Positions 151 through 64,000 of a DNA stretch of 64,000 bases are shown in pieces. A program made the position numbers and the translations under genes. Numbering within the stretch: position 1 is the first letter of the stretch; each line of letters begins with the position of its first letter. Source of the DNA: Acidobacteriota bacterium (lineage in GTDB: Bacteria; Acidobacteriota; Thermoanaerobaculia; Multivoradales; UBA5704). The stretch covers positions 32,001-96,000 of the forward strand of contig JBDTZG010000014.1 in the NCBI GenBank assembly GCA_040005235.1, in the 5' to 3' direction. The notes under the pieces were generated by a model, which saw only the letters and a program-made list of their open reading frames with translations, searched no databases and was not told the DNA's origin.

Positions 151-3100
151 ATGGTTGCATCTCACACAAATCTGGTCTCCCGGCTCTCGGCTGATCAGTT
201 ACGACGGATCGCTCGGCAACTCCGTGAAAAGGGGGGGGCCGTAGGGACGGATAGCCTTGCCCGGTTGCCCCGCGACCAGGGTGGTTTTCCACTCTCTTTT
301 GCCCAGGAACGACTGTGGTTCCTGGACCAACTTGAGCCTGGATCGATCAGCTATAACGTCGGTGTGAAGGTGCGTTTTCGCGGCCGGCTGGACATCGCGG
401 CTTTGCGAGAGAGCCTGTCGCGGATCGCGGGTCGGCACGAGGCGCTGCGGACCTGCTTCCGATCCGTGGACGGTAAATCCCAGCAGGAGATCCGGCCGGT
501 GGAGCCGGTGGCGGTGCCACTGGTGGATCTCGCGGGCTTCTCGGCTGCGAGGAGCGGGGCCGAGGCCGAGGCTCTTTCGCTCGGCGGCGCCCGGACGCCG
601 TTCGACCTGACTCGTGGACCGCTCCTCAGAGCGACGCTGCTGCGGGTGGCCGAGCAGGAGCATCTGCTCGTCCTGGTTCTTCATCACATCGTCTGCGACG
701 GTTGGTCGGCGGGTATTCTGGTCCGTGAGTTTGCTCTGCTCTACGCGGGTCGGGTGGAGGGGCGAGAGGCCGCACTCGCGGAGCTGTCGGTGCAGTATGC
801 CGATTTCGCGGTTTGGCAGCGCCTGCAGGTTACTCAAGGCGCTTGGGCGGAGCAGCTCGCCTATTGGCAAGGTCAGCTCAATGGGCTGCCTCCCCTCATC
901 TTGCGCACCGACCTTCAACGTCCGTCCATCTCGGACGGGAACGGAGAGCGCCATGTCCTCGAATTCAAGCCGGGCACCGCGGAGGCTGTGAGCGAGCTCG
1001 GACGGCGCGCTCAAGCCACGCCGTTCATGGTGCTGTGGTCGGTCTTTTCCGTACTCCTCGCTCGATTGGCCGGACAGGACGATTTTGGTGTCGCGACGCC
1101 GGTGGTCGGGCGCAGCCGGCCGGAGCTTCAGAGCCTCATCGGTTTCTTCGCCGACACCTTGGTCCTGCGCACCTCTCTGAGCGGCAACCCGACCTTCGGC
1201 GAGCTGCTGAATTTGAACCGGGAGATCGTTGCCGCGGCCTTCGCCAACCAGAGCATGCCGTTCGCCCTACTGGTCAAGGAGCTCGCGCCCGACCGCGTGC
1301 TCGGCACCACCCCCCTGGCGCAGGTGATGTTCAGCTTGGAGGATCGACTCTCGATTTCTTCCTTCGCAGGGCTCTCAGTGAGCTTGGAGGAGATCGACAA
1401 TCGGACGGCGAAATTCGATCTGATGCTGACTTTGCGCTTCGGTGCAAACGGGCTCTCGGGCCACCTGGAATATCCCACCGACCTTTTCGAACCGGTGACG
1501 GTGGCACGAATCGCGGCGCAGCTCGCTCTGCTTCTTGAAACCGCGACCACAGTTCCATCGGTGCCGGTTTTCGATTTGCCTCTGCTCGGCGCGGGCGAGC
1601 GCCACCAGGTCGTGACCGAGTGGAATGACAATTCGCGGAGCGCGGAAGCGAGAACGGTTCCGGATCTCCTGGCGGCGCAAGCGGCCCGGGCGCCCGATTC
1701 GACGGCGGTGATCCACGGCTTGGAGCGATTCTCCTACGGGGAGCTGCGCGCTCGGGCTCATCGGCTGGCGGGCCTGCTCAGGCAACGAGGCGTCGGGCCC
1801 GAGGTACGGGTGGGCGTATGCCTGGAGCGGTCTTTCGAGCTGGTGATCGCCCTGGTTGCGGTGCTGGAGGCGGGCGGGGCGTACGTCCCTCTCGATCCTA
1901 CCTATCCCAGAGAGCGCCTCTCCTACATTCTCGCCGACAGCGGCGCCGCCCTCGTGGTGACGAGCGAAGAGAGCGTCGCGTGCCTGCCGACGGACGGCGC
2001 CGTGGCGGTCTGCCTGATTCGAGCCGCGGGAGATTGGAGGACGGCTGAAGAGCCGATGGAGATATCGGGCTACACCCCACGGGCTCTGCCGGAGTCCCTG
2101 GCCTACTTGATCTATACCTCAGGCTCGACGGGGCGGCCCAAGGGAGTGGGGATCGAGCACCGCCACGCAGCGACCTTCCTCACCTGGGCGCGGCGGGCCT
2201 TTCTCAGCTCGGAGATCGCCGGCGTTCTTGCTTCGACCTCCGTCTGCTTCGACCTTTCGGTCTTCGAGCTGTTCGTGCCGTTGGCCTGGGGCGGAAGCGT
2301 AATCCTCGCGGACAACGTGCTGAATCTGCTGGCGCTCCCGGCTTCGACTGAGATCACCTTGGTGAGCTCCGTGCCCTCGGCGGTCGCGGAGTTGGTCGCC
2401 AGCGGCCTGCCGCCCGGAGTGCGCACGGTGAATCTGGCGGGAGAAGCGCTGCCACGGAGTCTGGTCGATCAGCTCTTCGCGCAGCCCGGCGTACGCCGCG
2501 TGCTCAACCTCTATGGTCCGTCCGAGGACACGACCTATTCGACGATGGCCGTAATGCGACGGGAGGACGGCCGGATACCGGCCATCGGCCGCCCCATTGC
2601 TGAGACGCGGGCCTATGTATTGGATGCCTTGCTTCGGCCGTTGCCTCTTGGGATTCCCGGCGAGCTGGCGCTGTCGAGTCGGAGCCTCGCTCGAGGATAC
2701 CTGGGCCGTCCCGAACTGACGGCGGAGAAATTCGTGCCGGATTCGCTGTCCGGGATTCCTGGCGAGAGAATGTACCGAACCGGCGACCTGGTGCGTTGGC
2801 GCGCCGACGGCGAGTTGGAGTTCTTCGGCCGCGCCGACCATCAGGTCAAGATTCGCGGTTTCCGTATCGAGATGGGGGAGATCGAAGCGGCACTTCTCGA
2901 GGTCCCCGGTATCGACGAAGCGGTGGTCGAGGTGTTCGAGGCCGCGGGGGGAGACCGTCGGCTGGCCGGCTTCTATGTGATGCGCCAGGTCGGGTCGGAA
3001 GTCGACGACCTCCCCGAACGGTTACAAGCGCGGTTGCCCGCTTACATGGTGCCGGCGTCCCTCCTACAGATTGCGGCGCTCCCCCGCACGGCGAACGGCA

Positions 3101-16293: not shown

Positions 16294-16295
16294 AG

Positions 16296-16301
16296 AAGGA
16301 G
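16296..16301 (+). promoter_or_regulatory. Shine-Dalgarno site for ORF2
   Basis: AAGGAG 7 nt upstream of the GTG start at 16309. Confidence 0.7.
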
Positions 16302-16308
16302 CTCGTTC

Positions 16309-35310: not shown

Positions 35311-35313
35311 AGC

Positions 35314-51100: not shown

Positions 51101-54100
51101 CGAGCTGCTTGAGAAGTACGTTACGGTGCAGGCGGTGGCGGAGTATCTCGACCGCGAGATGCCGCCGTCGCCGGCCGTCGCCGAACCCTTGGCCGTGGCA
51201 GACCTTCCTCCCGCCGCCGCAGGACCGGCACCGTCAGACGATGACCTTCCCGCTGCCGGGACTGTTTCGTCCGAGCATCTCGACCGCATCATCAACCGGC
51301 AGCTTGAGCTGATGGCGCGCCAGCTGGAGCTCCTGCGCGGGCCGGGACGGGCCGCCGCCCCGGCATCTCGCCCGTCGGAGCCGGCTCCCATCGCCTCCCC
51401 GATCTCTCAGGCTGCCGCTCCCGAAATGCGGCACCCGTTTGCCGCCAAACCGATCCTTACCGAGGCCCCCGGCACCTTCACGGAACCCCAGCGCCGGCAT
51501 TTGGACGACCTCATTTCGCGCCATACCCGGCGCACCGCGGAGTCCAAGCGCCGGACCCAGATGCATCGGCCCCACCTGGCCGAAAATCGGGCTTCGGTGG
51601 GGTTCCGGATGCTCTGGAAGGAGATGGTCTACCCCTTGATCGCCGAACGCTCGGAGGGCGGCCGGTTGTGGGATGTGGACGGCAACGAATACGTCGACAT
51701 CGCGATGGGATTCGGAGTTCACCTTTTCGGCCACTCGCCGGCTTTCGTGGTCGAAGCGCTGAACCACCAGATACGGCGTGGGTTGCAGCTCGGGCCGCAA
51801 TCGGACCTGGCCGGCGAAGTCGCCGCCCTCCTCTGCGAAGCGACCGGCATGGAGCGAGCGACCTTCGCCAACTCGGGCACCGAGGCCGTGATGACCGCGA
51901 TGCGGGTGGCGCGTGCCGTCACCGGCCGAAATCGGATTGCAATATTCAACGGCTCCTACCATGGTTCCTTCGACGGTACCCAGGTTCGCCGAGTGATGCG
52001 CGATGGGCTGGCTCAGCCTGTACCGAGCGCGCCAGGCGTACCGCCGGGAATGGTGGAGGACCTCCTGGTCCTCGACTACGATCGTCCAGAATCCCTGGAG
52101 GAGATCCGTCGTCAGGGGCGGGATCTCGCCGCGGTCTTGGTCGAGCCGGTGCAGAGTCGACGGCCGGATCTGCAGCCGCGAGAGTTCCTTCTGGAATTGC
52201 GGCGGATCACCGAGGAGAGCGGAACCGTTCTGATTTTCGACGATGTCATCCAGGGATTTCGCTGCCACACAGGGGGCAGCCAGGCCGTCTTCGGCGTCCG
52301 TGCAGACCTTGCGGTTTATGGCAAGGTGGTGGGTGGCGGCCTGCCGATTGGAGTCCTGGCCGGCACGTCGAAGGTGATGGATGCCATCGATGGCGGCTAT
52401 TGGAGTTTCGGCGACGACTCCTATCCGCGCGCCGACAAGACATTTTTCGCCGGAACGTTCTGCAAACACCCGCTGAGCATGGCCGCTGCGCTTGCGGTCC
52501 TTCGCCATCTTCGGGAGGAGGGGCCGGCTCTCCAAGAGCGCATCAACGATCGTACGGCGGCCCTCGCCGCCGAGCTGAACGCGTTCTTTTCCGCCGAGCG
52601 TTTTCCGGTCGAGGTCGTTCACTTCGGCTCCCTGTTTCGCTTCCAGTTCAATCGCGACCAGGATCTCGGCGATCTGTTCTTTTTCCACCTTCTCGAACAT
52701 GGCGTCTATACGTGGGAAGGCCGGACCTGCTTCCTCTCGACCGCCCATACCGAAAAGGACCTGGAAATCCTGGTCGATGCGGTTCGGCGCAGTGTCGCCG
52801 ACCTTCGAGCCGGAGGATTTTTCATCCCGGCGGAGCCGCTTCCGGTTCCGTTGGAAGCCCTGGTGGAGCGCCTGCCCCTCACCGCCGCCCAGCGTGGGAT
52901 CTGGTCGCTCTGTCAGCTCGATCCCGCGGCTTCAGGTGCCTTCAACGAAAGCATCGTCTGCCGCTTCGACGGGCCGATCGAATTGGGGGGCCTGCGCCGC
53001 GCCCTGCAAAGGGTCGTCGATCGCCACGACGTGCTGCGAGTCACCTTCGATTCCGATGGCGAGCATCAGGTGGTCCATTCGCGCATTGGGGTCGGCATTC
53101 CCTTGATCGACTTGCAGGTACTGCCGTCGGAGAGACGGACGATGCGCGAAGCCGATCTCGTGAGCGGTGGCCAAGGGCGAGAAGTTTTCGATCTCGAGCA
53201 CGGACCGTTGCTGCGAGCTCGGCTCTACCATTTCGAGCCTGACCGTCATCTTCTCGACCTGACGGTTCATCACTTGGTGACGGACGGCTGGTCCCTGGGT
53301 CTACTGCTGAGCGAAATTCGCCAGCTTTACGTCGGCGAGCTGGAGGGCGCGGCGGTCGAGCTGCCGGCCCCTACGCCGTTCAGGTGGTATGTCGAGCTGC
53401 AGGATCAACGCCTCGGGAGCGCCGGCCACGAGCATGTGGAAGCGTATTGGCTCGCTCGGTTCGGCGGTGCGATACCCGAGCTCAACCTTCCTTGCGACTT
53501 GCCGCGGCCGTCGCTCAAGAGCTACCGGGGTGCCCGGCTTTCGCGTCAAATCGGCGACGACGCGCTGTTGCCGGCTCTGCGGACGCTATGCCGAGATCAG
53601 CGCTGCACCCTTTTCATGCTGCTGCTCAGCGCCTTCGAGGCCTTGATGCAGCATCTCACCGGTGCGGACGACCTGGTCGTCGGCATCACCCTGGCCGAGC
53701 AACCGAGTCTCGACTCCCAGACGCTGATGGGCTACTGCTTGAACGTGCTGCCGCTGCGGGTTCCCGCAGAGGTCGATCTCCCGTTCCGCGAGCTCTTGGC
53801 GCGGACCCGGCACGGCCTCGCCGAGGCTCAGGAGAATCAGGCCTACGACATCGCCCGCCTAGTCAAAAAACTCGAATTGCGAGGTGACCGAAGCCGGAGC
53901 CCGATCTTTACCGTCGGGTTCAACCATGAGCGAGGTGAGGTTTGGCATGCTCCGGGCGGCTTGCGGGTAGAGCAGGTGTCGAGCCCGAACGTGGCGGCAC
54001 AGCTCGATCTCTCCTGGATGACCGTCGAGATGAGCGGTTCGCTGACCGTCCATTGCATCTACAGCACCGACCTGTTCGTCGAGGAGCGGGTCGTCGGCTG

Positions 54101-54293
54101 GATCGAGATCTACGAACGGTTGTTGGGAATTGTCGTTCGGGAACCGGACATCCGATTGAGCGACCTCGGCGAAATCCTGGTCCGGCAAGCGGCGGAAAGG
54201 CTCGAACGCGATCGGGTAGTCCGACGCTCGTCCAGCCTGTCGAAGCTGCGACGCACGGAACGCAAGCCGCTCGTTTCGGCACAGGGCTCGTGA
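48135..54293 (+). CDS. ORF4: PKS-NRPS hybrid KS-AT-ACP-aminotransferase-C
   Basis: 2052 aa ORF. KS NDKD...VQTACSTS/HGTGT/NLGHL; AT GHSLG and HAFHS; ACP GVDSLL (51027); class III PLP aminotransferase motifs DVDGNEYVD, NSGTEA, FDDVIQGFR, YGKVVGGGLP; terminal C HHLVTDGWS. Confidence 0.96.
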   Translation: MNQEGGNEIAVIGLAGRFPGASSVDELWSNLCAGIESISVFSEDDLNAAGISAELLRLPNYVRAKGVLVDVDLFDYGFFAIGARIAQVMDPQHRIFLECSWEALESAGYDAERFSGAVGVFAGCGLNSYFFQCVAPNFQLVASLGELQTTLVNDKDFLATQVSYKLGLRGPSVTVQTACSTSLVAVHIACQSLLMGECDMALAGGVSVKFPHQAGYLYQPESILSPDGHCRPFDAAANGTVNGSGAGVVVLRRLADALAAGDTVLAVIKGSAVNNDGSQKAGFTAPSLDGQAKVIAEAMAVAGVEPESISFVEGHGTGTAVGDPIEVAALSQAFAATAKTDRKGFCALGSIKGNLGHLDAASGIAGLIKAVLALRYGKLPPSLHFERPNPAIDLAESPFFVNDRLAEWPTDRGPLRAGVSSFGLGGTNAHVVLEEAPLAAPTTPPVRAPQLLVLSARTATALERMAGRLAESMRQGSDPSAVLSAIPSPGSSPIPAELPEIAFTLQTGRKVFEYRRTLVCRDREEAVAALSAGIGRTLRDSARNRPVVFLFPGQGEQRIGMGAGLYATEPVFQAEVDRACDLLKPHLGFDLRDVLYPAPAAAEEMALRLTQTAVAQPALFVVEHALAQLWMSWGIVPQATIGHSLGEYVAACLGGALSLADALALVAFRGQLMQSVSPGAMLAVRLTPEAVRKKLAEPLGEGLALAAVNGAERCVVSGPLDAILALEGDWSSDGVPCRRLETSHAFHSAMMEPVLDAFRRRLEGIRFGKVQIPWLSNLTGGWITQSEASDAAYWCAHLRQTVRFGDGVRELLGEDRIFLEVGPGAVLGNLVKQAAGKSAVPVLRSLPPGREERSDEPTALLETLGDLWRHGARISWNAFHKGTRRRRVLLPTYPFEREKAWLEPPAAGPMKILEPSVQNPVLISPVPVSASRLPEILAGLSSVVGDLIGARPDQIDPSIPFLDVGVDSLLLIQASQAIHRRFGIKISLAELLEKYVTVQAVAEYLDREMPPSPAVAEPLAVADLPPAAAGPAPSDDDLPAAGTVSSEHLDRIINRQLELMARQLELLRGPGRAAAPASRPSEPAPIASPISQAAAPEMRHPFAAKPILTEAPGTFTEPQRRHLDDLISRHTRRTAESKRRTQMHRPHLAENRASVGFRMLWKEMVYPLIAERSEGGRLWDVDGNEYVDIAMGFGVHLFGHSPAFVVEALNHQIRRGLQLGPQSDLAGEVAALLCEATGMERATFANSGTEAVMTAMRVARAVTGRNRIAIFNGSYHGSFDGTQVRRVMRDGLAQPVPSAPGVPPGMVEDLLVLDYDRPESLEEIRRQGRDLAAVLVEPVQSRRPDLQPREFLLELRRITEESGTVLIFDDVIQGFRCHTGGSQAVFGVRADLAVYGKVVGGGLPIGVLAGTSKVMDAIDGGYWSFGDDSYPRADKTFFAGTFCKHPLSMAAALAVLRHLREEGPALQERINDRTAALAAELNAFFSAERFPVEVVHFGSLFRFQFNRDQDLGDLFFFHLLEHGVYTWEGRTCFLSTAHTEKDLEILVDAVRRSVADLRAGGFFIPAEPLPVPLEALVERLPLTAAQRGIWSLCQLDPAASGAFNESIVCRFDGPIELGGLRRALQRVVDRHDVLRVTFDSDGEHQVVHSRIGVGIPLIDLQVLPSERRTMREADLVSGGQGREVFDLEHGPLLRARLYHFEPDRHLLDLTVHHLVTDGWSLGLLLSEIRQLYVGELEGAAVELPAPTPFRWYVELQDQRLGSAGHEHVEAYWLARFGGAIPELNLPCDLPRPSLKSYRGARLSRQIGDDALLPALRTLCRDQRCTLFMLLLSAFEALMQHLTGADDLVVGITLAEQPSLDSQTLMGYCLNVLPLRVPAEVDLPFRELLARTRHGLAEAQENQAYDIARLVKKLELRGDRSRSPIFTVGFNHERGEVWHAPGGLRVEQVSSPNVAAQLDLSWMTVEMSGSLTVHCIYSTDLFVEERVVGWIEIYERLLGIVVREPDIRLSDLGEILVRQAAERLERDRVVRRSSSLSKLRRTERKPLVSAQGS
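51600..52810 (+). other. Embedded class III aminotransferase (AMT) domain
   Basis: GFGVHLFGH, SYHG, VEPVQS, PLP-binding Lys at 52323 (YGK), TFFAGTF. Same type as the AMT domains of McyE and MycA. Confidence 0.9.
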
Positions 54294-54300
54294 CCCGCTC

Positions 54301-57300
54301 ATGCCGGTGATCGAATCTTTCCGTCTCTCTCCTCAACAGGAGCGCCTTTGGCACCTCGGCCCCTCGTCGGTCTTTCGAGCGCAGTGCGCGGTGAATCTCG
54401 TGGGCCCGCTCGATCGCGCGGTCCTCGCGAGGGCCGTACGCGACGTCGTCCGGCGGCATGAAATCCTCCGTACCCGATTCGGCCTTTTCGGCGGCACGCT
54501 GGCGGCGCAGGCGCCCGGGGAAAGCGAGGATAGAGCTTGGGTCGAGCTCGATTTGCGCGCCGCCAACCCGCAAGACGGGACGAATCGCATCGCCGGAGCG
54601 TACGCCACCCAAGCGGAGACGCCGCCGGACCTCGGCGCCGGATCGATGCTCGACGTGCAGCTGGTGATTCTGGCGGAGGATCGACACCAGCTGTTGCTGC
54701 GCCTCCCCTCGCTGTGCGCCGACCGCCGAAGCCTTCGTAACCTGGTCCTGGCGATCGCGCGTTCCTATCAGGCCGCGATGGGCGACGGTGGTACCGGGGA
54801 TCAAGCCGCCGCAATGCAGTACATCGAAATCGCGCAGTGGCAGGCGGAGCTGTTGGAATCGACGGATGGCGAAAACGAAAGGCGGCTCTGGCAGGAGAGA
54901 AGTCAGGCGGTCCAGAGCCTCCGACTTCCCCTCGGAGACCCAAGCTCGCCGGAAGTGGAGTCTCATCCCGAGTTGACGACTTTTGAGCTGGGGGAGGGGC
55001 GGATGGCCGGCCTGCGCGCTCTCGCGGATCGAATCGGCATCCCCATGTCGGCGCTTTTTCTCGCTACGTTCTCAGCGCTCCTGGCTCGCCTGGAGGAGTC
55101 GGGAACGACCGCCCTGGGTCTCGTGGCGGAAGGGCGCACCTTCGACGATCTTGCCGACGCTCTCGGGCCGTTCAGCAAGTCCCTGCCTCTCGTCTTCGGC
55201 ACGGAGCAAGGCACCCTTCCCTTCGACCGGTTCGCCCAGCGGGTGCGGAAGGACATGGACGAGGCGGCCGCCATTCAGGAGTTTCTCGAACCCGCCTTCC
55301 TTCCCCTTCGATTCGAGTGGGTCGAGGAGCCGCCGCAGGCGGTCGCGGCGGGGGTGACTTTCGTGATCGACCGCGAGTCGGTCATCACGGATCGCTTCGT
55401 CCTTCAACTCTCCTGTCACGGCGATTCCAGGGGATACTGCGAGCTGCTTTTCGATCCCTCGCGGATGGACCGGACCGAAGCCGAGCGACTGGCAGAGCGC
55501 TTTCGCTCCCTTCTCGACAGCGCTTTGGCCGAACCGTTGAAAACCCTGCGCGAGCTGAACGCCGTGGGGGAGAGGGAGCGAGCGTTCTTGCTCCGGGGTT
55601 TGAATCCGGAGCGGGTTGTCTATCCGGACGCCGATCGATGCCTCCATGAGCTGTTCGAGGAGCAGGTGCGCCGGCGCCCCGGCGCTCCCGCCCTGGTCTT
55701 TGGCGGCACTTCCCTGACCTATGCCCAGCTCGATGCAAAATCGTCGGATCTTGCCGCCCGCCTGGCGAAACGAGGTGCAGGTCCCGAGGTGTTGGTCGGG
55801 ATTTGCATGGAACGTTCGTTGGAGCTGGTAATCGGACTTCTCGGCATACTCAAAGCGGGCGCGGCCTACGTCCCGCTCGAGCCCTCCTATCCGAAAGAGC
55901 GGCTGGAGGCGATGCTGGAGGACCTTGCCGCGACCGGCCGCCTTCCTTTGATTGTCACCCGGGAGTCGCACCTGGCGGCGCTCCCGGAGCGGCCCATAGC
56001 GGACTCCGGTCTACTCCTCCTTTCGGCCGAAGAGCCCGTGGCTCAAGAACGGCATCCATCCGTGCGGATGAATCCCGGGCATCTGGCCTATTCGATCTTC
56101 ACCTCGGGCTCCACTGGCCGTCCCAAAGGGGCGATGAACTCGCACCGCGGCGTGGTCAACCGCCTGCTATGGATGCAGCAAGTCTACGGTCTTTCCCCGC
56201 AGGACCGCGTCTTACAAAAGACGCCGTTTAGTTTCGACGTTTCGGTTTGGGAGCTCTTTTGGCCTTTGATCTGCGGTGCCACCTTGGTGGTTGCAGAGCC
56301 GGATCGACACAAGGACAGCTCCTATCTGATCCGCATCTTGCGCGAGGAGAGGATCACCACGGTCCATTTCGTCCCTTCGCTGCTGCGCATTTTTCTCGAA
56401 GAGCCGACGGTGGCCTCGTGCGGGTCGCTTCATCGGGTCATCTGTAGCGGCGAGGCGCTGCCACCCGATTTGGTGAATCGCTTCTTCGATTGTTTCCGTG
56501 GCGAGCAGGCACCCGAGCTCCACAATCTTTACGGGCCTACGGAGGCGGCGGTCGATGTGACCTGGTGGCGATGCGCTTCCGGAGAAGAAGTGACGCCGAT
56601 CGGCACGCCGGTGGCCAACACCTGCATCTACCTGCTCGACCCGCCGGCAATGGCTTTGCGCCCGGTGCCCTTCGGCGCGCCGGGCGAGATCTGCATCGGC
56701 GGAGTCCAGGTCGGGCGGGGTTACCTGGGACGTCCCGACCTTACAGCCGAGCGTTTTCTGCCCGATCCGTTCTCTCGCGAGCCGGGCGACCGTCTGTATC
56801 GTACCGGCGACGTGGCGCGATACCTGCGCGACGGAGCCATCGAGTACCTTGGCCGCCTCGACGATCAGGTGAAGATTCGGGGGGTCCGGATCGAGCTCGG
56901 CGAGATCGAGTCCGTCCTGCGCCGGCACGAGGGCGTGCTCGACGCGGCGGTGGTGGCGCGAGATGTCGCTCCGGGCGACCGGCGGCTCATCGCCTACGCG
57001 GTGACCCGCGAAACGACCGCTCCGACCGTCGGCGAGTTGCGCTCCTATCTCGAGCGGCTGCTTCCCCAGGCCATGGTCCCTTCCCAGATCGTTCGATTGG
57101 CTGCGTTGCCGCTCACGCCCAGCGGCAAGGTGAATCGTCGAGCCTTGCCGCTTCCCGAACCGGAACGACCGGATCTGGAAGTCGCTTTCGTCGCTCCGCG
57201 GACCGCCGCCGAGAAATTGCTGGCGGGAATCTGGGCGGACCTCTTGCGCGTGAGCGACATCGGTGTCTTCGACGACTTCTTCCAGCTTGGAGGCGACTCC

Positions 57301-58926
57301 ATCCTGGCGGTTCAGGCCGCGTCCAGGGCGAACCGCGCGGGACTTCGCCAATTGCCGATGCAGGTGTTCCGCCATCCAACGATCGCCGCGCTGGCGGCGC
57401 AGTCCGAGGCCCCAGAGACCCCTGAAACCGTAGCGGTCCCGGTCGCCCAGGACGCTCGCGTTCTAGAGGCCGCGGCAGGTCAGTTGGGTGCGAAGGCGGA
57501 GATCGTCGGCGCCTATCCGCTTTCGCCCATTCAGCAGGGGATTCTGTTTCACAGCGTTGAACGCCAGGATCCCAACCGGTACATCCTGCAGGTCAGCTCA
57601 CTCCTTGCGGGGGAGCTGAACGTCGCCGCCTTGCGCTCTTCCTGGCAGCTCCTGGTGGCCCGCCACTCGATCTTCCGCACCGCTTTTCTCTGGGAAGGTC
57701 TGGAGGAGCCGGTTCAGGTGGTTCTCGCGCGCGTCGAAACTCTTTTCGCCAATGTGGATCTCGGCGCTCTCGAGCCGGCGGTGCGAGACCACGCGATCGA
57801 CGAGTGGCTGGAGGCCGACCGCGCCGACGGGTTCGATTTCCGCGTCGCCCCTTTGATTCGTTTGGCGCTCTTTCATCTGGGCGAGAATAGCTATCAATTC
57901 GTTTGGACCTTCCATCACCTGGTCATGGACGGTTGGTCGGAACGAGTGGTTCTCGACGAGCTCAACCGTCTCTACTCGGACTTCTGCCGGGGTCCGGGGG
58001 TCGAGCTCGATCCGGCGCCGCAATTCGACGCTTACATCGAATGGCTACGTCGACGGGACCTCGCCTCGGCGGAAGCATTCTGGCGGGAGGAGTTGCAGGG
58101 TTTCAGTGGCTCGACTCCTCTCGAAGTGCCGGGCGATGGGGTGATCGAAACCGGCGAGGGGACGGGCGTCGAGGTCCGGCAACTTCTCTGGAGCGCGGAA
58201 GAGACGGGTGCTCTTCGGTCGTTCGCCCAAGACTCCCGCCTTACCCTCAACACCCTGGTTCAGGGTGCCTGGGCTCTGTTGCTCGGAGTCGCGAGCAGCC
58301 GGCGGGACGTGGTCTTCGGGGCGACGGTTTCGGGACGCCCCGCCGACCTTTCGGGAGTCGAGTCGATCGTCGGACCTTTTCTCAACACTCTGCCGGTGCG
58401 CTTGCGTTGGCGGCCGGAGGAAAACCTCCTGCCCTGGCTGACCGAGGTCCAAAATCACTTCGCGGAGTTGCGGAGCTATGAGTTCAGCCCGCTGGTCGCC
58501 ATTCAAGGCTGGAGCCAGGTGCCGCGCGGTTTGCCGGTTTTCGAGAGTCTCGTGGGATTCCAGAATCGGCCTTTGCTGCCCGAGGGGGAGCCGAAGCAGG
58601 CCGCGGGCGGCTTTGCGGTGCGCAGTCGCGGGTATCGCGGCGGGCGCAACAACTTCCCGCTTGGACTTGAGGTCGATCCCGGACCGCGGCTCAATTTGAT
58701 GCTTGCCTATGACCGAGCACGGTTTCGGGCGGTGGGCATCGAGCTCCGGCTCAAGTTGTGCGCGACTCTGCTGGCGTCCTTCATGGCGCAGCCCGACGCG
58801 ACGCTTTCCTCCCTGGAAACCAGCCTGGAAGGCAGCCTGCGGCGGTGGCACGAAGAGGACGACCGGCTGCGGGAGCAGCGGAATGTCCAGAATCTAAGGT
58901 TTGCGAGGCGGAGAGTCTCGTCGTAA
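54301..58926 (+). CDS. ORF5: NRPS I-A(Ser)-T-C(DCL-like)
   Basis: 1541 aa ORF. SFRLSPQQERLW start; degenerate site LPSLCAD (~54703); code DVWHISLVDK; T GGDS (57289); terminal C YPLSPIQQGILFH...FHHLVMDGWS. Confidence 0.95.
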   Translation: MPVIESFRLSPQQERLWHLGPSSVFRAQCAVNLVGPLDRAVLARAVRDVVRRHEILRTRFGLFGGTLAAQAPGESEDRAWVELDLRAANPQDGTNRIAGAYATQAETPPDLGAGSMLDVQLVILAEDRHQLLLRLPSLCADRRSLRNLVLAIARSYQAAMGDGGTGDQAAAMQYIEIAQWQAELLESTDGENERRLWQERSQAVQSLRLPLGDPSSPEVESHPELTTFELGEGRMAGLRALADRIGIPMSALFLATFSALLARLEESGTTALGLVAEGRTFDDLADALGPFSKSLPLVFGTEQGTLPFDRFAQRVRKDMDEAAAIQEFLEPAFLPLRFEWVEEPPQAVAAGVTFVIDRESVITDRFVLQLSCHGDSRGYCELLFDPSRMDRTEAERLAERFRSLLDSALAEPLKTLRELNAVGERERAFLLRGLNPERVVYPDADRCLHELFEEQVRRRPGAPALVFGGTSLTYAQLDAKSSDLAARLAKRGAGPEVLVGICMERSLELVIGLLGILKAGAAYVPLEPSYPKERLEAMLEDLAATGRLPLIVTRESHLAALPERPIADSGLLLLSAEEPVAQERHPSVRMNPGHLAYSIFTSGSTGRPKGAMNSHRGVVNRLLWMQQVYGLSPQDRVLQKTPFSFDVSVWELFWPLICGATLVVAEPDRHKDSSYLIRILREERITTVHFVPSLLRIFLEEPTVASCGSLHRVICSGEALPPDLVNRFFDCFRGEQAPELHNLYGPTEAAVDVTWWRCASGEEVTPIGTPVANTCIYLLDPPAMALRPVPFGAPGEICIGGVQVGRGYLGRPDLTAERFLPDPFSREPGDRLYRTGDVARYLRDGAIEYLGRLDDQVKIRGVRIELGEIESVLRRHEGVLDAAVVARDVAPGDRRLIAYAVTRETTAPTVGELRSYLERLLPQAMVPSQIVRLAALPLTPSGKVNRRALPLPEPERPDLEVAFVAPRTAAEKLLAGIWADLLRVSDIGVFDDFFQLGGDSILAVQAASRANRAGLRQLPMQVFRHPTIAALAAQSEAPETPETVAVPVAQDARVLEAAAGQLGAKAEIVGAYPLSPIQQGILFHSVERQDPNRYILQVSSLLAGELNVAALRSSWQLLVARHSIFRTAFLWEGLEEPVQVVLARVETLFANVDLGALEPAVRDHAIDEWLEADRADGFDFRVAPLIRLALFHLGENSYQFVWTFHHLVMDGWSERVVLDELNRLYSDFCRGPGVELDPAPQFDAYIEWLRRRDLASAEAFWREELQGFSGSTPLEVPGDGVIETGEGTGVEVRQLLWSAEETGALRSFAQDSRLTLNTLVQGAWALLLGVASSRRDVVFGATVSGRPADLSGVESIVGPFLNTLPVRLRWRPEENLLPWLTEVQNHFAELRSYEFSPLVAIQGWSQVPRGLPVFESLVGFQNRPLLPEGEPKQAAGGFAVRSRGYRGGRNNFPLGLEVDPGPRLNLMLAYDRARFRAVGIELRLKLCATLLASFMAQPDATLSSLETSLEGSLRRWHEEDDRLREQRNVQNLRFARRRVSS

Positions 58927-58930
58927 GGGG
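58924..58930 (+). promoter_or_regulatory. Probable Shine-Dalgarno site for ORF6
   Basis: TAAGGGG, overlapping the ORF5 stop, 7 nt upstream of TTG 58938. Confidence 0.55.
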
Positions 58931-58937
58931 TGCAGCT

Positions 58938-61900
58938 TTGAATCAGTCAGGTATCGAGAATCGACCAGGCGAGCCCGGCTCGGAAGAGATCCTGGGGTTC
59001 AGCCTATCGCCGCAACAGCGCCGTGCGCTCTGGTTGAAAGAGCGCACGGCCGGCTCGGCTTTTTGGATTCAATGCACCTTTCGGATCGAAGGCCCGATCG
59101 AGCTGAAAGCGCTGCGCCATGCCGTGAGTAGGGTGGTGGCTCGCTATGAAGTCCTACGGACGGTTTTCGTGACCACGCCGGCCCCTGCCAAACAGGTGAT
59201 TCGCGAGTATCTGGCGCCGCATTTGCGACATCTCGATTTGCGCTCTCTGGACGAGGAGGCCCGCGCCGCCGCCGTCGATCTCGCGGTTTCCGAGGCGGTC
59301 CGGGAGCCCTTCGACCTGGAGCGCGGGCCCTTGATGCGGGTCTCTTTTTTGACTCTGGAGCCCGAGCTGTCGATCTTGGAAATATCCCTGGCGGCCGTCT
59401 GCGGTGATCGCTCCACCCTGCTCCGAATCGTTGAGGAAATTGCCCGCGGGGTCGACCCGCCCGATGGGGAACCCGAAGGCGAGGTGCTTCAGTATGCCGA
59501 TATGGCCGATTGGCTGAATCAACTCGAAGAATCGAGCGAGCCCTGGACCCGAGAAGCGGCCTGGCCGAGCCGCGACGCAGCGGAGCTGGACGCTCTGCTT
59601 CTCCCGTTCGAAAGCCCAACGGCGAGCTTCAGGCCCGGCGTAATTCCGGTGCCGTTGGCGCCCGGAGCGCTCGCCGGGCTGGAGGCCCTGGCCGCTCGTC
59701 GCGGAGCCTCTCTTGCGGGAGTCCTTCAAGCGGCCTGGCATGCGGTGCTCGGCCGCCTCACGGGCTCCCGCGAGATGGTCGTCGGATCGTCGACGGACGG
59801 GCGAAGGTACGATGAGCTCCGGGAAGCCGTCGGCCCCCTCTCCAAAGCCTTGCCGATCCGCTCCCGACCCGCTCCGGCAATGCCATTTTTCGACCTGCTC
59901 GCTGCGGTCGAAGCCGCCATCGCCGAGGCGATACGAATCGAGGAGTCGTTCAGTTGGGAGCCGCTCCTCGGAGGGCGCGAAGGGCGGGGGTATTTCCCCT
60001 TCGCTTTCGAGCTCTGGGAAGAGCCGGTACCGTTGCGAATCGGCGGTACGGTGTGGAGCCTCGGACAGGTCTCCGGCGGCGGAGAACGCTTTACCGCGGC
60101 CCTCGTTTGCCGACATTCAGCGGGTGCTCTCAAAGCCGAGGTCGGCTACAACGAGGCGGTCCTGAGCCGCGAAGAGGCGGAGCGGCTGGCCGAGCGTTTC
60201 GCCACCTTCCTCTCTTCCCTCATGGCTACGCCCGAGGCACCGACCGGCTCCTTGTCGATGGTGGGCTCCAAAGAACGGCTGCAGCTGCTTGGCGACTGGA
60301 ACGAAACCCGCAGCGAAGATGTCGAGAAATGGCCGGTCCACCGGTGGTTCGAGCGGCAGGCGCGCACTACGGCCGAGAACACGGCCGTGGTGGCAGGAGG
60401 GGTGCGCCTGACCTACTCGGAGCTGGACCGACGCAGCAATCAACTTGCGCGTTTTCTGCGCCGGTCCGGCGTTTCTCCCGACGTCCTCGTCGGCCTCGCC
60501 GTGGAGCGATCCGTCGCGATGGTCGTCGGCCTCCTGGGGGTCTTGAAGGCCGGAGGGGCGTATCTCCCCCTGGACCTCGGCCACCCTCGGGAGCGACTCG
60601 AAATGATCCTCACGGAGGCGCGTCCGGCGGTGGTTCTCACCACAATGGAGTCCCTCGAGCGCCTGCCTGTAGCCGCGGAGCGGCGGGTCTGCCTCGACCG
60701 CGATTGGGAGCGGATCGCCGTCGAGAGCGCCGAACCGGTGGCTGCCGCGGTGGCCTTGGAGAATCTGGCCTACGTGATCTACACCTCGGGGTCTACCGGC
60801 CGACCCAAGGGGGTGATGATCTCCCACGGCGGACTGCGCAATTACCTGCTTTGGGCCACCCGGGCCTATGGAGCCGGAGAAGGGCAGGGGTCTCCGGTTC
60901 ACTCGCCCCTCGGTTTCGATCTTACCGTGACCAGCCTTTTGAGCCCGTTGGTTGCCGGCGGCGCGGTCGTCTTGGTGGAGGAGGCGTCCGGCGTCGACGG
61001 CCTTCTTGAGGTTCTGCGCCAGGGAATGGACTTCGGCCTGGTGAAGCTGACGCCGGCCCACCTTTCGCTGGTGGAACAGGGCCTAGGGGTGCCATTCGAG
61101 GGAAAAGTGCGCACGTTGGTCGTCGGGGGGGAAGCCCTTTTCGCCGAGAGTTTCGCCGCCTTGCGTGCCGAGGCGCCGGCCACGCGCATCATCAATGAGT
61201 ACGGTCCGACGGAGACCGTCGTCGGTTGCTGCACCTACGAGGTCCCCCTGGAGGGAGCGCCGCCCGCCGGAGCGGTTCCCATCGGTCGTCCGATCGCCAA
61301 TACCCGCCTCTACCTGGTCGACGGGTGGTGGAATCCGGTGCCTCGCGGCGTCCAAGGCGAGATTTGGATCGGCGGCGCGGGGGTCGGTCGCGGCTATCTC
61401 GCCCGGCCGGATCTGACGGCCGAGCGCTTCGTCCCCGATCCCTTCTCGGACGAACCGGGAGAGCGGGTCTACGTCAGTGGCGATCTCGGCCGCCTTGGGC
61501 TGGACGGAAACCTCGTCTATCTCGGACGAACCGATCACCAAGTCAAGATTCACGGCTATCGGATCGAGCTCCAGGAGATCGAGGCCGTCCTGCGTCGCCA
61601 TCCGCACGTCCGTGAGGCGGCGGTGGTCGTGGCGGGCTCGGGGTTGGATAGCAGGCTCCTCGCCTTCGTGGTTCCTTCCGGCGAGGCGGTGGATCAAACA
61701 GCGCTGGCCGCTTTTTTAACCCTTCATCTTCCTTCGTACATGATCCCCGCCCAGATCGGCCAGATCGCGTCCCTTCCCTTGACGGAAAACGGCAAGGTGG
61801 ATCGCGGTCTCTTGTTGGCCCGAGAGGCGGAGACGGCTGCCCGGAGGGATTTCATCGCGCCTCGGACGCCGGTCGAAGAGCTGCTCTCCGGGATCTGGGG

Positions 61901-64000
61901 TGATTTGCTCGGCGTGGCTCGCGTGGGGGTGGACGACGACTTCTTCGAGCTCGGAGGGCACTCACTCCTCGCCATGCGTCTCGTCTCCCGCATCCGGTCG
62001 GCCTTCGGAGCCCGCCTCTCGCTGGGCGTCGTTTTCAGCGCCCGCACGGTGTCGAGCCTGGCTCGGGCCGTAGAGGCCGAACGCTGGCGAGACCTTGAGA
62101 GGGGGGCCGGCGCGATCACCCGAGCCGAGCGGGACAAACCGCTGCCGGTCTCACTGCAACAGCGCCGGCTTTGGATACTCCATCAGGTGAACCAAGGCGA
62201 AATGGTTTACCACATACCCTATGCCTTACGGCTGGCCGGCGACCTGGACCTCGAATCCCTGAGGTGGGCGATCACCCGGCTGAGCGGGCGTCACGAGTCG
62301 TTACGAACGACCTTCGGCAACTTGGACGGCGAGCTGGTCCAGATCGTGGCCGATCCGATGGCCGTGCAGTGCCCGTGTCTCGATCTCAGCTGCCTCTCCG
62401 AGGAGGATCGGGAGGTCGAGGCCCGACGTCGAGTCCGGGAAATGATGCACCGGACTTTCGACCTCCAAACCGGCCCGCTGCTGCGAATACTTACGCTTCG
62501 GCTCGCCCGGCAGGAACACATCGTCGCCCTGTCGATGCACCACATCATCTCCGATGGTTGGTCGATGGAGATTTTCGTGCGCGAGCTCGTCACCCTGTAC
62601 GAGGCCTTTCGCGCCGGAGAAGGGCCGCGGCTGCCGGAGTTGCCGATCCAATACGGCGACTACGCCGCCTGGCAGCACCGCTGGCTGACCGGGGAGGTCC
62701 TCGATCGGCACATCGATTTCTGGCGCCGCCGGCTCGCCGAGCCCCTGCCCCAGCTGGAGCTCCCGACCGATCGGCCCCGTCCGGAATTTCCCGGCTTGGG
62801 CGGCGGCACTGTGGCGATCGCTTTCGATGGCGGCGTCTATGGCGATCTGCGGCAACTGGGACAACGTCAGCTCGCCACGTCTTTCATGTTGTTCCTCGCG
62901 GCTTGGAACGTTCTGCTCAACCGCTATACCGGCCAGGAGGACATTCTGATCGGGACCCCTATCGCGGGGCGGGACCATCCGGAAGTCGAAGGTCTGATTG
63001 GGTTTTTCGTCAACACTCTGATCTTGCGCAACGACTTGACGGGAGAGCCGACCTTCATCGATCTCCTGGATCGGGTGCGCGATCGGGCGCTCGACGCCTA
63101 TGCCCATGACGAGCTGCCGTTCGATCGCCTGGTCGAAGAGCTTCAGCCGGAGCGACGGTCGGGGCAGACGCCGTTTTTCCGGGTTGCCTTCACCCTGGTC
63201 AACCGGCCGCGGGTGGATGTCGGCTTCAGCGGACTCAAACTCGGAGCGTTCGAGATCGAGGTGCCGATCTCCAAATTCGATTTGACGCTGAGCTGCCTCG
63301 AACAGGAACATCAGGTTCTGCTAGAGATCGAGTACAGATCCGATCTCTACGAAAGCTCCACCGCCTTGCGCATGCTCGGGCATCTCGACGTGCTTCTGCG
63401 AGCCGTCGCCGCGGATCCCGCCCGGCCGATCTCGGAGCTGCCGATGCTCACGCCAAGCGAGCTGCGGCAGGCGGTGGGGGATTGGAACGCCACGGCGACG
63501 AAGTATCCCGTCGGTTCCTGTATCCACGAGCTTTTCGAGACCCAGGCTCGTCGGACCCCTGGCCGGCAGGCGGTCGTCTTCGGTGACCGATCGCTGACCT
63601 ACGGCGAGCTCGACGAGCGCGCCACCGGGCTGGCGCAGGGACTCCGCAAACTGGGGGTCGGCCCCGAGGTGTTGGTGGGACTGCTGATGGACCGGTCGAT
63701 CGACATGGTCGTGGCGATGGTCGGCATCCTCAAGGCGGGAGGCGCCTATCTGCCCCTCGATCCGTCCTACCCCCGCGAGCGCCTCATGCTGATGCTGGAG
63801 GATTCCGGATCACCCTTGGTGGTCACCCATCAGGCGCGGCTTGCGGAGGTCCCGGAAGGAAATTGGAAAACCTTGTCGTTGGAGCAGGATGCCGGCGAGG
63901 GTCGAGGCGGCGCCATCTTTTCCGGCGCCACCCCCGAGAGCCTCGCCTACGTCATCTATACCTCCGGATCGACCGGTGTTCCGAAGGGCGTGGCGGTGCC
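58938..64000 (+). CDS. ORF6 (3' truncated by the window): NRPS I-A(Asn)-T-C-A(partial)
   Basis: Hand translation: MNQSGIENRPGEPGSEEILGFSLSPQQRRAL...; LAAVCGD (59388); YTSGSTGRPKG (60780); code DLTKVGEVGK (Asn-type); FFELGGHSLL (61941); MHHIISDGWS (62535); YVIYTSGSTGVPKG (63948). All motifs lie in the same frame. Confidence 0.93.
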   Translation, partial: MNQSGIENRPGEPGSEEILGFSLSPQQRRALWLKERTAGSAFWIQCTFRIEGPIELKALRHAVSRVVARYEVLRTVFVTTPAPAKQVIREYLAPHLRHLDLRSLDEEARAAAVDLAVSEAVREPFDLERGPLMRVSFLTLEPELSILEISLAAVCGDRSTLLRIVEEIARGVDPPDGEPEGEVLQYADMADWLNQLEESSEPWTREAAWPSRDAAELDALLLPFESPTASFRPGVIPVPLAPGALAGLEALAARRGASLAGVLQAAWHAVLGRLTGSREMVVGSSTDGRRYDELREAVGPLSKALPIRSRPAPAMPFFDLLAAVEAAIAEAIRIEESFSWEPLLGGREGRGYFPFAFELWEEPVPLRIGGTVWSLGQVSGGGERFTAALVCRHSAGALKAEVGYNEAVLSREEAERLAERFATFLSSLMATPEAPTGSLSMVGSKERLQLLGDWNETRSEDVEKWPVHRWFERQARTTAENTAVVAGGVRLTYSELDRRSNQLARFLRRSGVSPDVLVGLAVERSVAMVVGLLGVLKAGGAYLPLDLGHPRERLEMILTEARPAVVLTTMESLERLPVAAERRVCLDRDWERIAVESAEPVAAAVALENLAYVIYTSGSTGRPKGVMISHGGLRNYLLWATRAYGAGEGQGSPVHSPLGFDLTVTSLLSPLVAGGAVVLVEEASGVDGLLEVLRQGMDFGLVKLTPAHLSLVEQGLGVPFEGKVRTLVVGGEALFAESFAALRAEAPATRIINEYGPTETVVGCCTYEVPLEGAPPAGAVPIGRPIANTRLYLVDGWWNPVPRGVQGEIWIGGAGVGRGYLARPDLTAERFVPDPFSDEPGERVYVSGDLGRLGLDGNLVYLGRTDHQVKIHGYRIELQEIEAVLRRHPHVREAAVVVAGSGLDSRLLAFVVPSGEAVDQTALAAFLTLHLPSYMIPAQIGQIASLPLTENGKVDRGLLLAREAETAARRDFIAPRTPVEELLSGIWGDLLGVARVGVDDDFFELGGHSLLAMRLVSRIRSAFGARLSLGVVFSARTVSSLARAVEAERWRDLERGAGAITRAERDKPLPVSLQQRRLWILHQVNQGEMVYHIPYALRLAGDLDLESLRWAITRLSGRHESLRTTFGNLDGELVQIVADPMAVQCPCLDLSCLSEEDREVEARRRVREMMHRTFDLQTGPLLRILTLRLARQEHIVALSMHHIISDGWSMEIFVRELVTLYEAFRAGEGPRLPELPIQYGDYAAWQHRWLTGEVLDRHIDFWRRRLAEPLPQLELPTDRPRPEFPGLGGGTVAIAFDGGVYGDLRQLGQRQLATSFMLFLAAWNVLLNRYTGQEDILIGTPIAGRDHPEVEGLIGFFVNTLILRNDLTGEPTFIDLLDRVRDRALDAYAHDELPFDRLVEELQPERRSGQTPFFRVAFTLVNRPRVDVGFSGLKLGAFEIEVPISKFDLTLSCLEQEHQVLLEIEYRSDLYESSTALRMLGHLDVLLRAVAADPARPISELPMLTPSELRQAVGDWNATATKYPVGSCIHELFETQARRTPGRQAVVFGDRSLTYGELDERATGLAQGLRKLGVGPEVLVGLLMDRSIDMVVAMVGILKAGGAYLPLDPSYPRERLMLMLEDSGSPLVVTHQARLAEVPEGNWKTLSLEQDAGEGRGGAIFSGATPESLAYVIYTSGSTGVPKGVAV

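Follow-up and report, generated by a model that had tools for sequence, protein, structure and literature searches.

A conserved FAAL-primed hybrid NRPS-PKS lipopeptide line with interface-type domains in a member of the Acidobacteriota

A KS-AT-ACP-aminotransferase-C unit is known from the synthetases of mycosubtilin and iturin. Modules with interface (I) domains were reportedly placed by Reitz et al. 2019 in the nonribosomal peptide synthetase (NRPS) systems of beta-hydroxylated siderophores, and the solved structure 5WMM, which we take to be A4-M4 of TioS from the thiocoraline synthetase, presumably represents a backbone N-methyltransferase acting on Cys. In the arrangement described in PMC13638107 and PMC12230676, a stand-alone gene for a TauD-type hydroxylase lies directly upstream of the I domain; the former, a study of 2026, reports that the I domain is dispensable for coupled hydroxylation in vitro. 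The product of cplA of Collimonas carries N-terminal KS, malonyltransferase, and aminotransferase domains, according to PMC8313283. The locus compared with these systems here is the window, i.e., the whole analysed stretch of 64,000 nt at positions 32001-96000 of the 106,205-bp contig C132 (JBDTZG010000014.1) of an Acidobacteriota bacterium (Thermoanaerobaculia, assembly GCA_040005235.1). The genome is 6.22 Mb long in 140 contigs and is rated 100% complete with 0.33% contamination. According to the open reading frame (ORF) listing, the window is occupied by six megasynthetase genes (g1-g6), all on the + strand, that form part of a hybrid line of NRPS and type I polyketide synthase (PKS) modules.

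The window is quite probably the central 64 kb of one colinear line that is primed by a fatty acyl-AMP ligase (FAAL) and makes a lipopeptide, with the I domains as docking halves of split modules. It is read as one line because it opens at its 5' end with a single FAAL-ACP and starter C domain and closes at its 3' end with a single thioesterase (TE), neither a further TE nor another loading domain intervenes, and the intergenic gaps within the line measure -4 to 42 nt. Neither end falls within the window, but the contig carries both; inside the window, neither a TE nor a loading domain was found with hidden Markov models (HMMs) built from the cluster's own domains. The full line has a FAAL-ACP lipid starter, 18 NRPS modules, two malonyl-type PKS modules, and one terminal TE, coded in seven genes over about 79 kb (contig 22,696-101,407). 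All components of a hybrid NRPS/type I PKS lipopeptide system were found, namely the core C-A-T motifs, KS/AT/ACP, lipo-initiation, and a terminal TE. The cluster is a real, intact, and conserved lipopeptide line made of familiar parts, with a few unusual arrangements, and it comes from an uncultured bacterium of soil type. An earlier sequence-only reading of the window had described six co-directional genes with very short gaps and intact motifs, which the ORF list, Pfam, and motif checks confirmed; its view of one hybrid NRPS-PKS line, with PKS, Cy, methyltransferase, E, and aminotransferase functions at the positions claimed, is likewise supported. Its product of at least 17 units holds for the window, but is incomplete, as the line read with its flanks has 20 extension modules and the lipid starter. 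That reading had placed starter, release, tailoring, and transport genes in the flanks, and these yielded the FAAL starter of g0 with a permease gene before it on the upstream side, and the TE, a short-chain dehydrogenase/reductase (SDR) gene, and a carbamoyltransferase gene downstream.

The first gene of the line, g0 (contig 22696-31164, same strand, 5' of the window), encodes FAAL-ACP, a starter-type C domain (HHIVVDF), and A-T-C-A-T. Within the window, where all features given below are on the + strand, g1 (151-16293, 5380 aa) encodes five C-A-T modules, and g2 (16309-35310, 6333 aa) encodes KS-AT-KR0-ACP-Cy-A(MT)-T-C-A(MT)-T-C-A-T-E-C. Gene g3 (35314-48138, 4274 aa) has the order I-A(Gln)-T, C-A(Ser)-T, C-A(Thr)-T, C-A(Gly)-T; g4 (48135-54293, 2052 aa) is KS-AT-ACP-aminotransferase-C; and g5 (54301-58926, 1541 aa) is I-A(Ser)-T-C with the carrier motif LGGDSI. 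The 5' part of g6 (58938-64000; I-A(Asn)-T-C-A...) is in the window and the gene runs on to contig 101407; as a whole it codes for 3489 aa, arranged as I-A(Asn)-T, C-A(Ile/Val)-T, and C-A(Cys-like)-T-TE. The window thus holds 14 complete NRPS modules and two PKS modules, and a 17th unit begins before its end. Gaps are 15 nt (g1/g2), 3 nt (g2/g3), a 4-nt overlap (g3/g4), and 7 nt (g4/g5). The gap g5/g6 is 11 nt if the predicted start codon of g6 is TTG 58938, which is consistent with the start of its N-terminal domain according to the cluster's own domain HMMs; the alternative start GTG 58758, the earliest given by the ORF finder, would make a 169-nt overlap with g5. Domains were called by Pfam on pieces of about 1000 aa and by HMMs from the cluster's own domains, and both agree.

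The window has no N and a G+C content of 62-66%. Stop-free ORFs of 4-19 kb at this G+C content are far beyond chance, and neither a stop nor a frameshift interrupts the approximately 21,000 codons. The A3 motif is present in all 14 complete A domains and the carrier Ser motif in all 16 carriers, while the A8 and A10 motifs show minor variants only. Both KS domains have the active-site Cys (QTACSTS), HGTGT, and N-x-GH, and both AT domains have GHSxG and HAFH.

Orthologous clusters were sought in 91 other genomes of the family with the KR-like region of g2 as a marker. Full-length matches were found in two of them only, G163 (63% identity) and G175 (43% identity), each from a further genus; the seven other genomes from the genus of the window genome yielded no full-length match. 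The distribution is patchy, with the cluster present in three genera but not found in the other seven genomes of its own, which suggests transfer or repeated loss. G163 keeps the order 475-aa gene-permease-g0-308-aa gene-g1-g2-g3-g4 with 68-79% protein identity and then diverges. G175 keeps permease-g0'-308-aa gene-g1-g2-g3, followed by g4-g6 fused in one ORF, the SDR gene, and the carbamoyltransferase gene, with about 58-71% identity. A scan of species representatives with g4 gave at best 48-49% identity among the matches listed; it was swamped by the AT motif (at least 597 stretches), missed the orthologues, and is no evidence for uniqueness. No characterised cluster matching the line was found in limited literature searches.

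The 10-residue specificity codes were read by aligning all A domains and taking the columns that match GrsA 235, 236, 239, 278, 299, 301, 322, 330, and 331, positions given in PMC11253843. The codes of g0 are DILQFGMVYK and DAWFLGHVVK. Those of g1 are, in order, DLFSNALTYK, DLTKIGHVGK, DLFNNALTYK, DLFNNALTYK, and DPRHFVYRAK; those of g2 are DLFNLSLIWK, DLYDFSLVWK, and DAWQFGLIDK; and those of g3 are DAWQFGLIDK, DVWHISLVDK, DFWNIGMVHK, and DILQLGMIWK. Gene g5 has DVWHISLVDK, and g6 has DLTKVGEVGK, DAFFLGVTFK, and DLYDFSLVWK. Aligned codes reproduced the residue order proposed by the sequence-only reading, i.e., Ala-like, Asp, Ala, Ala, an omega-acid type, Cys in the Cy module, Cys-like with a methyltransferase, Gln followed by E, Gln, Ser, Thr, Gly, Ser, and Asn, and the flanks extended the string by acyl-Gly(like)-Leu(like) in front and Ile/Val-Cys(like) at the end. 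For Gln, the code matches exactly one quoted in PMC8313283, and the Thr and Ile/Val codes are the same as entries in a table of PMC2533009. The Ser code is one position off a published code predicted as Ser. Codes are nearly unchanged among this cluster and those of G163 and G175.

Three positions in the line are marked by I domains. The C-terminal C domain of g2 (33880-35238, HHLLLDG, Cd clade by motif and tree) is followed by the interface-type pseudo-C domain of g3 (35341-36702, HSLCGDG, second His lost, by motif and tree). The C-terminal C domain of g4 (52848-54194, HHLVTDG, by Pfam and motif) precedes that of g5 (54304-55617, PSLCADR, by motif and tree), and the C-terminal C domain of g5 (57487-58845, HHLVMDG, Cd clade, no E domain before it, by own HMMs and tree) precedes that of g6 (58968-60317, AAVCGDR, by motif and tree). 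At the HH position, HS, PS, and AA are thus found in g3, g5, and g6, respectively, with the second His lost in each, and the modules load Gln, Ser, and Asn. Among 111 C-family domains taken from this genome and from the orthologous loci of G163 and G175, the second His is missing in all 10 I domains (three clusters and contig C91), while HH is present in 76 of 76 ordinary C domains. In a tree that contained no reference I domains from the literature, the 10 I domains form one clade with support 1.0, including two TauD-adjacent domains of C91. All six I domains of this genome are N-terminal, and in each case the preceding protein closes with a C domain. The proteins upstream end in 30-40 basic residues past their C domain, and no hydroxylase is fused to them.

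This arrangement resembles that of MxgA/MxgB of myxoglucamide, where, according to PMC13638107, a C-like domain without the second His heads an A-T protein and the real C domain is on the protein upstream. It differs from I-domain systems with a hydroxylase. The cluster has no alpha-ketoglutarate dioxygenase, either fused, between the genes, or on the contig; PF02668, taken for TauD-type hydroxylases, had no match on the 106-kb contig C132, and no partner hydroxylase is fused or adjacent to the I domains. Elsewhere in the genome, PF02668 matched on C56, on C91 (twice), and weakly on C8. In addition, one of the I modules in the window loads Ser, and its fused counterpart in G175 has no I domain: there, the C domain runs directly into the Ser A domain. 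In the same fused gene of G175, at about residues 2699-3245, a carrier comes immediately after a C domain, so that the position of the Asn module has neither I nor A.

I loci were surveyed in the family by taking the best-scoring locus from each of 30 genomes, three of which are this genome or carry the orthologous clusters. In all 30, the I domain heads an ORF with an A domain next, and in none is HH present at the motif. A TauD gene is immediately upstream of the I domain at 18 of the 30 loci. At the other 12, a complete C domain on a separate ORF ends about 100 nt upstream with no TauD between. I-type matches also occur every 4.5-6.5 kb on single contigs (e.g., G090:C2, G198:C4, and G121:C94); read from spacing alone, this suggests chains of single-module proteins like g5. 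The second FAAL-primed lipopeptide cluster of this genome (C91:1-60600) has three I-headed genes, with TauD before two of them and not before the third, and an ABC half-transporter gene at its start. The probable beta-hydroxy residues that the sequence-only reading had assigned to the I modules are not supported in cis, with no PF02668 match on the contig, 12 of 30 family loci free of a hydroxylase, and one I module loading Ser.

From the gene arrangement only, we infer that the I domains of this cluster provide split modules with their docking or positioning half, hydroxylation being an optional extra. In line with this, the I domain was dispensable for coupled hydroxylation in vitro in PMC13638107. 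A wider proposal is put forward tentatively, as possible rather than probable: in this acidobacterial family, adapting a hydroxylase would not be the primary function of the I domain, which would be the general N-terminal half of split C/A modules with a hydroxylase gene optionally inserted. The line would then make a new lipopeptide of 20 units, rich in thiols and with a beta-amino C2 insert in mid-chain, whose redox state would be handled by a dedicated secreted Cys/selenocysteine lipocalin-thioredoxin protein. The split-module part is proposed because of the 12 hydroxylase-free loci, the runs of I matches at 4.5-6.5 kb, and the fused I-less orthologue.

Several points weigh against the docking reading and the product assigned with it. 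In G163, a TauD gene lies directly before the last I-A(Gln)-T gene of the orthologous cluster. In G175, an ABC half-transporter (exporter) gene and a TauD gene form a pair about 5 kb downstream of the cluster, and the best matches of this pair, with 60% and 50% identity, are an orphan pair side by side on C56 of the window genome. The substrate call for DPRHFVYRAK has no support from structure or from the literature search, and for the second Cys-like code, DLYDFSLVWK, no matching published code was confirmed. Calls of Asp, Asn, Ala, Gly, and Leu-like residues presumably correspond to published codes, and what the accessory genes do is guessed from the families to which they belong.

The TauD genes of G163 and G175 also speak for a different explanation, by which a TauD-type dioxygenase coded elsewhere (C56 or C91) would hydroxylate Gln and/or Asn in trans and the product would be a beta-hydroxy, metallophore-like lipopeptide bearing a thiazoline and thiols. 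The I domains of the window belong to the same clade as the hydroxylase-adjacent ones, and TauD is the immediate upstream neighbour at most of the surveyed loci (18/30). We nevertheless consider this explanation unlikely. No PF02668 match is on the contig, Ser is the residue loaded at one of the three I positions and its beta-hydroxylation is chemically implausible, and the Ser module of G175 has no I domain at all. Moreover, the C56 pair (C56:165363-168336, a TauD gene and then the half-transporter gene) has no NRPS genes near and adjoins importer-type ABC genes. Neither a receptor nor an uptake gene was among the 15 ORFs or ORF pieces of the contig scanned with Pfam, and the ORFs scanned with Pfam and NCBIfam likewise gave no iron-regulated gene or tailoring gene for a chelating unit; these scans are not exhaustive and did not cover small ORFs. 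The metal binding on which the sequence-only reading had speculated is without support.

That the window joins two or more adjacent independent lines (e.g., g1-g3 and g4-g6) is very improbable. Just upstream on the contig (605-18391) there is indeed a distinct PKS-NRPS line that ends in a TE of its own, and the cluster of G163 is rearranged past g4, where the SDR gene plus some 4 kb of other DNA separate g4 from the NRPS gene that follows. However, no TE, reductase-release, or loading domain occurs from g0 to the end of g6, every protein end fits the next start (T to C, T to KS, or C to I), gaps between the genes of the window are at most 15 nt, and g4-g6 are a single ORF in G175. Least credible of all is a decaying, non-functional relic, for which the patchy distribution (2/91 other family genomes and 0/7 of the same genus) and the lack of a hydroxylase partner beside the I domains would speak, but which is contradicted by about 21,000 codons free of stops and frameshifts, by the intactness of all catalytic motifs checked, and by orthologues that keep the domain order and near-identical codes at 58-79% identity.

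With one FAAL-primed line as the preferred reading, the FAAL would prime the line and its acyl chain would form a lipid cap. The predicted product is acyl-Gly(like)-Leu(like)-Ala(like)-Asp-Ala-Ala-(Aad/Glu-like)-(C2, keto or hydroxy)-Cys heterocycle-N-methyl-Cys(like)-D-Gln-Gln-Ser-Thr-Gly-(C2 with beta-amine)-Ser (probably D)-Asn-Ile/Val-Cys(like), where Aad is 2-aminoadipic acid. Three modules would be split across proteins, with the C domain ending the upstream protein and a catalytically dead I domain heading the downstream one. The TE would release the product, and the beta-amine or a hydroxyl might, speculatively, serve as nucleophile for cyclisation.

The fifth A domain of g1 (14398-15906) has the aligned code DPRHFVYRAK with Pro236 and Arg239. 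The first six letters of this code were in no paper of the literature search, and the nearest solved A domains were uninformative; an Aad/Glu-like (omega-acid) substrate is plausible for this domain. It is followed by the first PKS module, at the start of g2, whose KS-AT (16309-18831, by Pfam and motifs) has the Cys-His-His intact and GHSIG and HAFH in AT, the latter presumably of the malonyl type. The KR-derived region KR0 (18994-20193, by a weak KR-prefix match) has no recognisable NADPH motif. Its 400 aa gave no Pfam KR match up to E<=1 and show no glycine-rich nucleotide motif; over the first approximately 295 aa, they resemble the linker between AT and KR in other PKSs. In cis, the beta-ketone of this module would stay. 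A FabG-like reductase (SDR) gene is, however, common to all three versions of the cluster, and reduction in trans by this enzyme is as likely as a ketone. The C2 ketone of the sequence-only reading overlooked this conserved gene, which makes the ketone uncertain.

The next module has a Cy domain (20497-21828, by Pfam, motif, and own HMMs) with the DxxxxDxxS motif as DYLIADAWS, followed by a Cys-type A domain interrupted by a methyltransferase (21919-24579, code DLFNLSLIWK, by Pfam and code). A second interrupted A domain, Cys-like (26317-29019, code DLYDFSLVWK, by Pfam and code), is in an ordinary C module. For both, the best solved relative is 5wmm_A, with 263.5 bits in the Cy module and 270.5 bits in the C module, over the whole insert. 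N-methyl-Cys in the ordinary C module fits this likeness. Dissimilar to 5WMM is that one of the two interrupted A domains is in a heterocyclising module. N-methylation in a Cy module would need a ring reduced beforehand, as in pyochelin logic (PchF/PchG). The methylated thiazoline followed by N-methyl-Cys in the sequence-only reading is therefore retained for N-methyl-Cys, but a C-methyl-thiazoline is doubtful because both methyltransferases resemble one putative N-methylating interrupted A domain.

The Cy module is like those of pyochelin and yersiniabactin in having a Cy domain with DxxxxD, a methyltransferase inside the A domain, and a Cys code, which in DLFNLSLIWK is identical to the predicted L-Cys code of PchE in PMC11253843. 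Unlike in those systems, there is no salicylate starter, and the module is placed after a PKS module in a lipopeptide line of 20 modules. No PchG-type reductase was identified, in contrast to pyochelin, as the only reductase of the cluster is FabG-like; possibly, this enzyme is a trans ketoreductase or a thiazoline reductase.

An E domain (32461-33858, by Pfam, motif, and own HMMs) follows the Gln module of g2 and is preceded by a carrier with LGGDSI. Carriers with LGGDSI occur only before this E domain and before the Cd domain of g5, which has no E domain before it (6/6 across the three clusters). In the C-domain tree, members of the Cd clade follow E domains or LGGDSI carriers; aimed at splitting plain D-donor from dual E/C domains, this tree gave no clean split by context. 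The Ser loaded by g5 is probably epimerised, given its LGGDSI carrier and the Cd-clade C domain, and the C-terminal C domain of g5 is a possible candidate for a dual epimerisation/condensation domain.

Gene g4 carries a class III aminotransferase domain similar to GSA aminomutase (51465-52829, by Pfam). It has the same domain order as the mycosubtilin/iturin unit and the same type of aminotransferase, which would convert a beta-keto thioester to a beta-amine. Unlike the iturin type, g4 is mid-chain, after the Gly module and with the FAAL 14 modules upstream, so the substrate of its KS would not be a fatty acid. Iturin-type units build a beta-amino fatty acid, whereas g4 would insert a beta-amino C2 unit into the backbone.

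The cluster is complete on one contig, has two orthologues as natural variants, and is a workable target for heterologous expression. The family offers many hydroxylase-free I domains and a fused I-less orthologue, so the docking role is directly testable. To a specialist, the line would be worth expressing and yet unsurprising in an uncultured lineage rich in such genes, and the evidence on I domains would be the most useful by-product.

The 308-aa gene between g0 and g1 (contig 31183-32109; its 3' end is at 1-109 of the window) keeps this position in both orthologous clusters. Its product starts with a signal peptide and combines a barrel of the lipocalin type with a CxxC domain of thioredoxin fold; C175 and C178 are invariant in the alignment. 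No Pfam match was obtained even at E<=1. There are 47 homologues in a large protein collection, all named "hypothetical protein" and from metagenome-assembled genomes labelled Acidobacteria or Thermoanaerobaculia. In the structural model (pLDDT 90.2, pTM 0.84), the N-terminal barrel matches lipocalin/FABP folds and the C-terminal domain matches DsbF, DsbE, CcmG, ResA, and GPx. The first Cys codon of CxxC is TGA in four of nine related loci inspected, with the motif pattern unmatched in two others, and many matches of the family have a single TGA in frame, as would be expected if Cys and selenocysteine alternate at a redox site. As a guess, the protein may oxidise or reduce the three thiols of the product.

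Downstream of g6 are the 257-aa FabG-like SDR gene and then a 712-aa NodU/CmcH-type carbamoyltransferase gene, past which the contig ends after 1.9 kb. The permease gene before g0 belongs to the ADOP family of duplicated permeases (TIGR03434, 904 bits, above the cut-off). A 475-aa gene (contig 18597-20024) has weak leads to ATP-grasp and glutathionylspermidine-synthase-like proteins, from a Pfam match at E 0.002 that is below the cut-off and from language-model neighbours. It is beside the permease gene in G163 as well (76-78% identity), and a relative with 35% identity is near the cluster of G175. No Pfam match at E<=1 was found for a 335-aa ORF. The separate PKS-NRPS line at contig 605-18391 has the order KS-AT-ACP-C-A-T-KS-AT-KR-ACP, continued on a second gene by C-A(MT)-T-TE; the N-terminal 455 aa of this second gene had neither a Pfam match (E<=1) nor an NCBIfam match.

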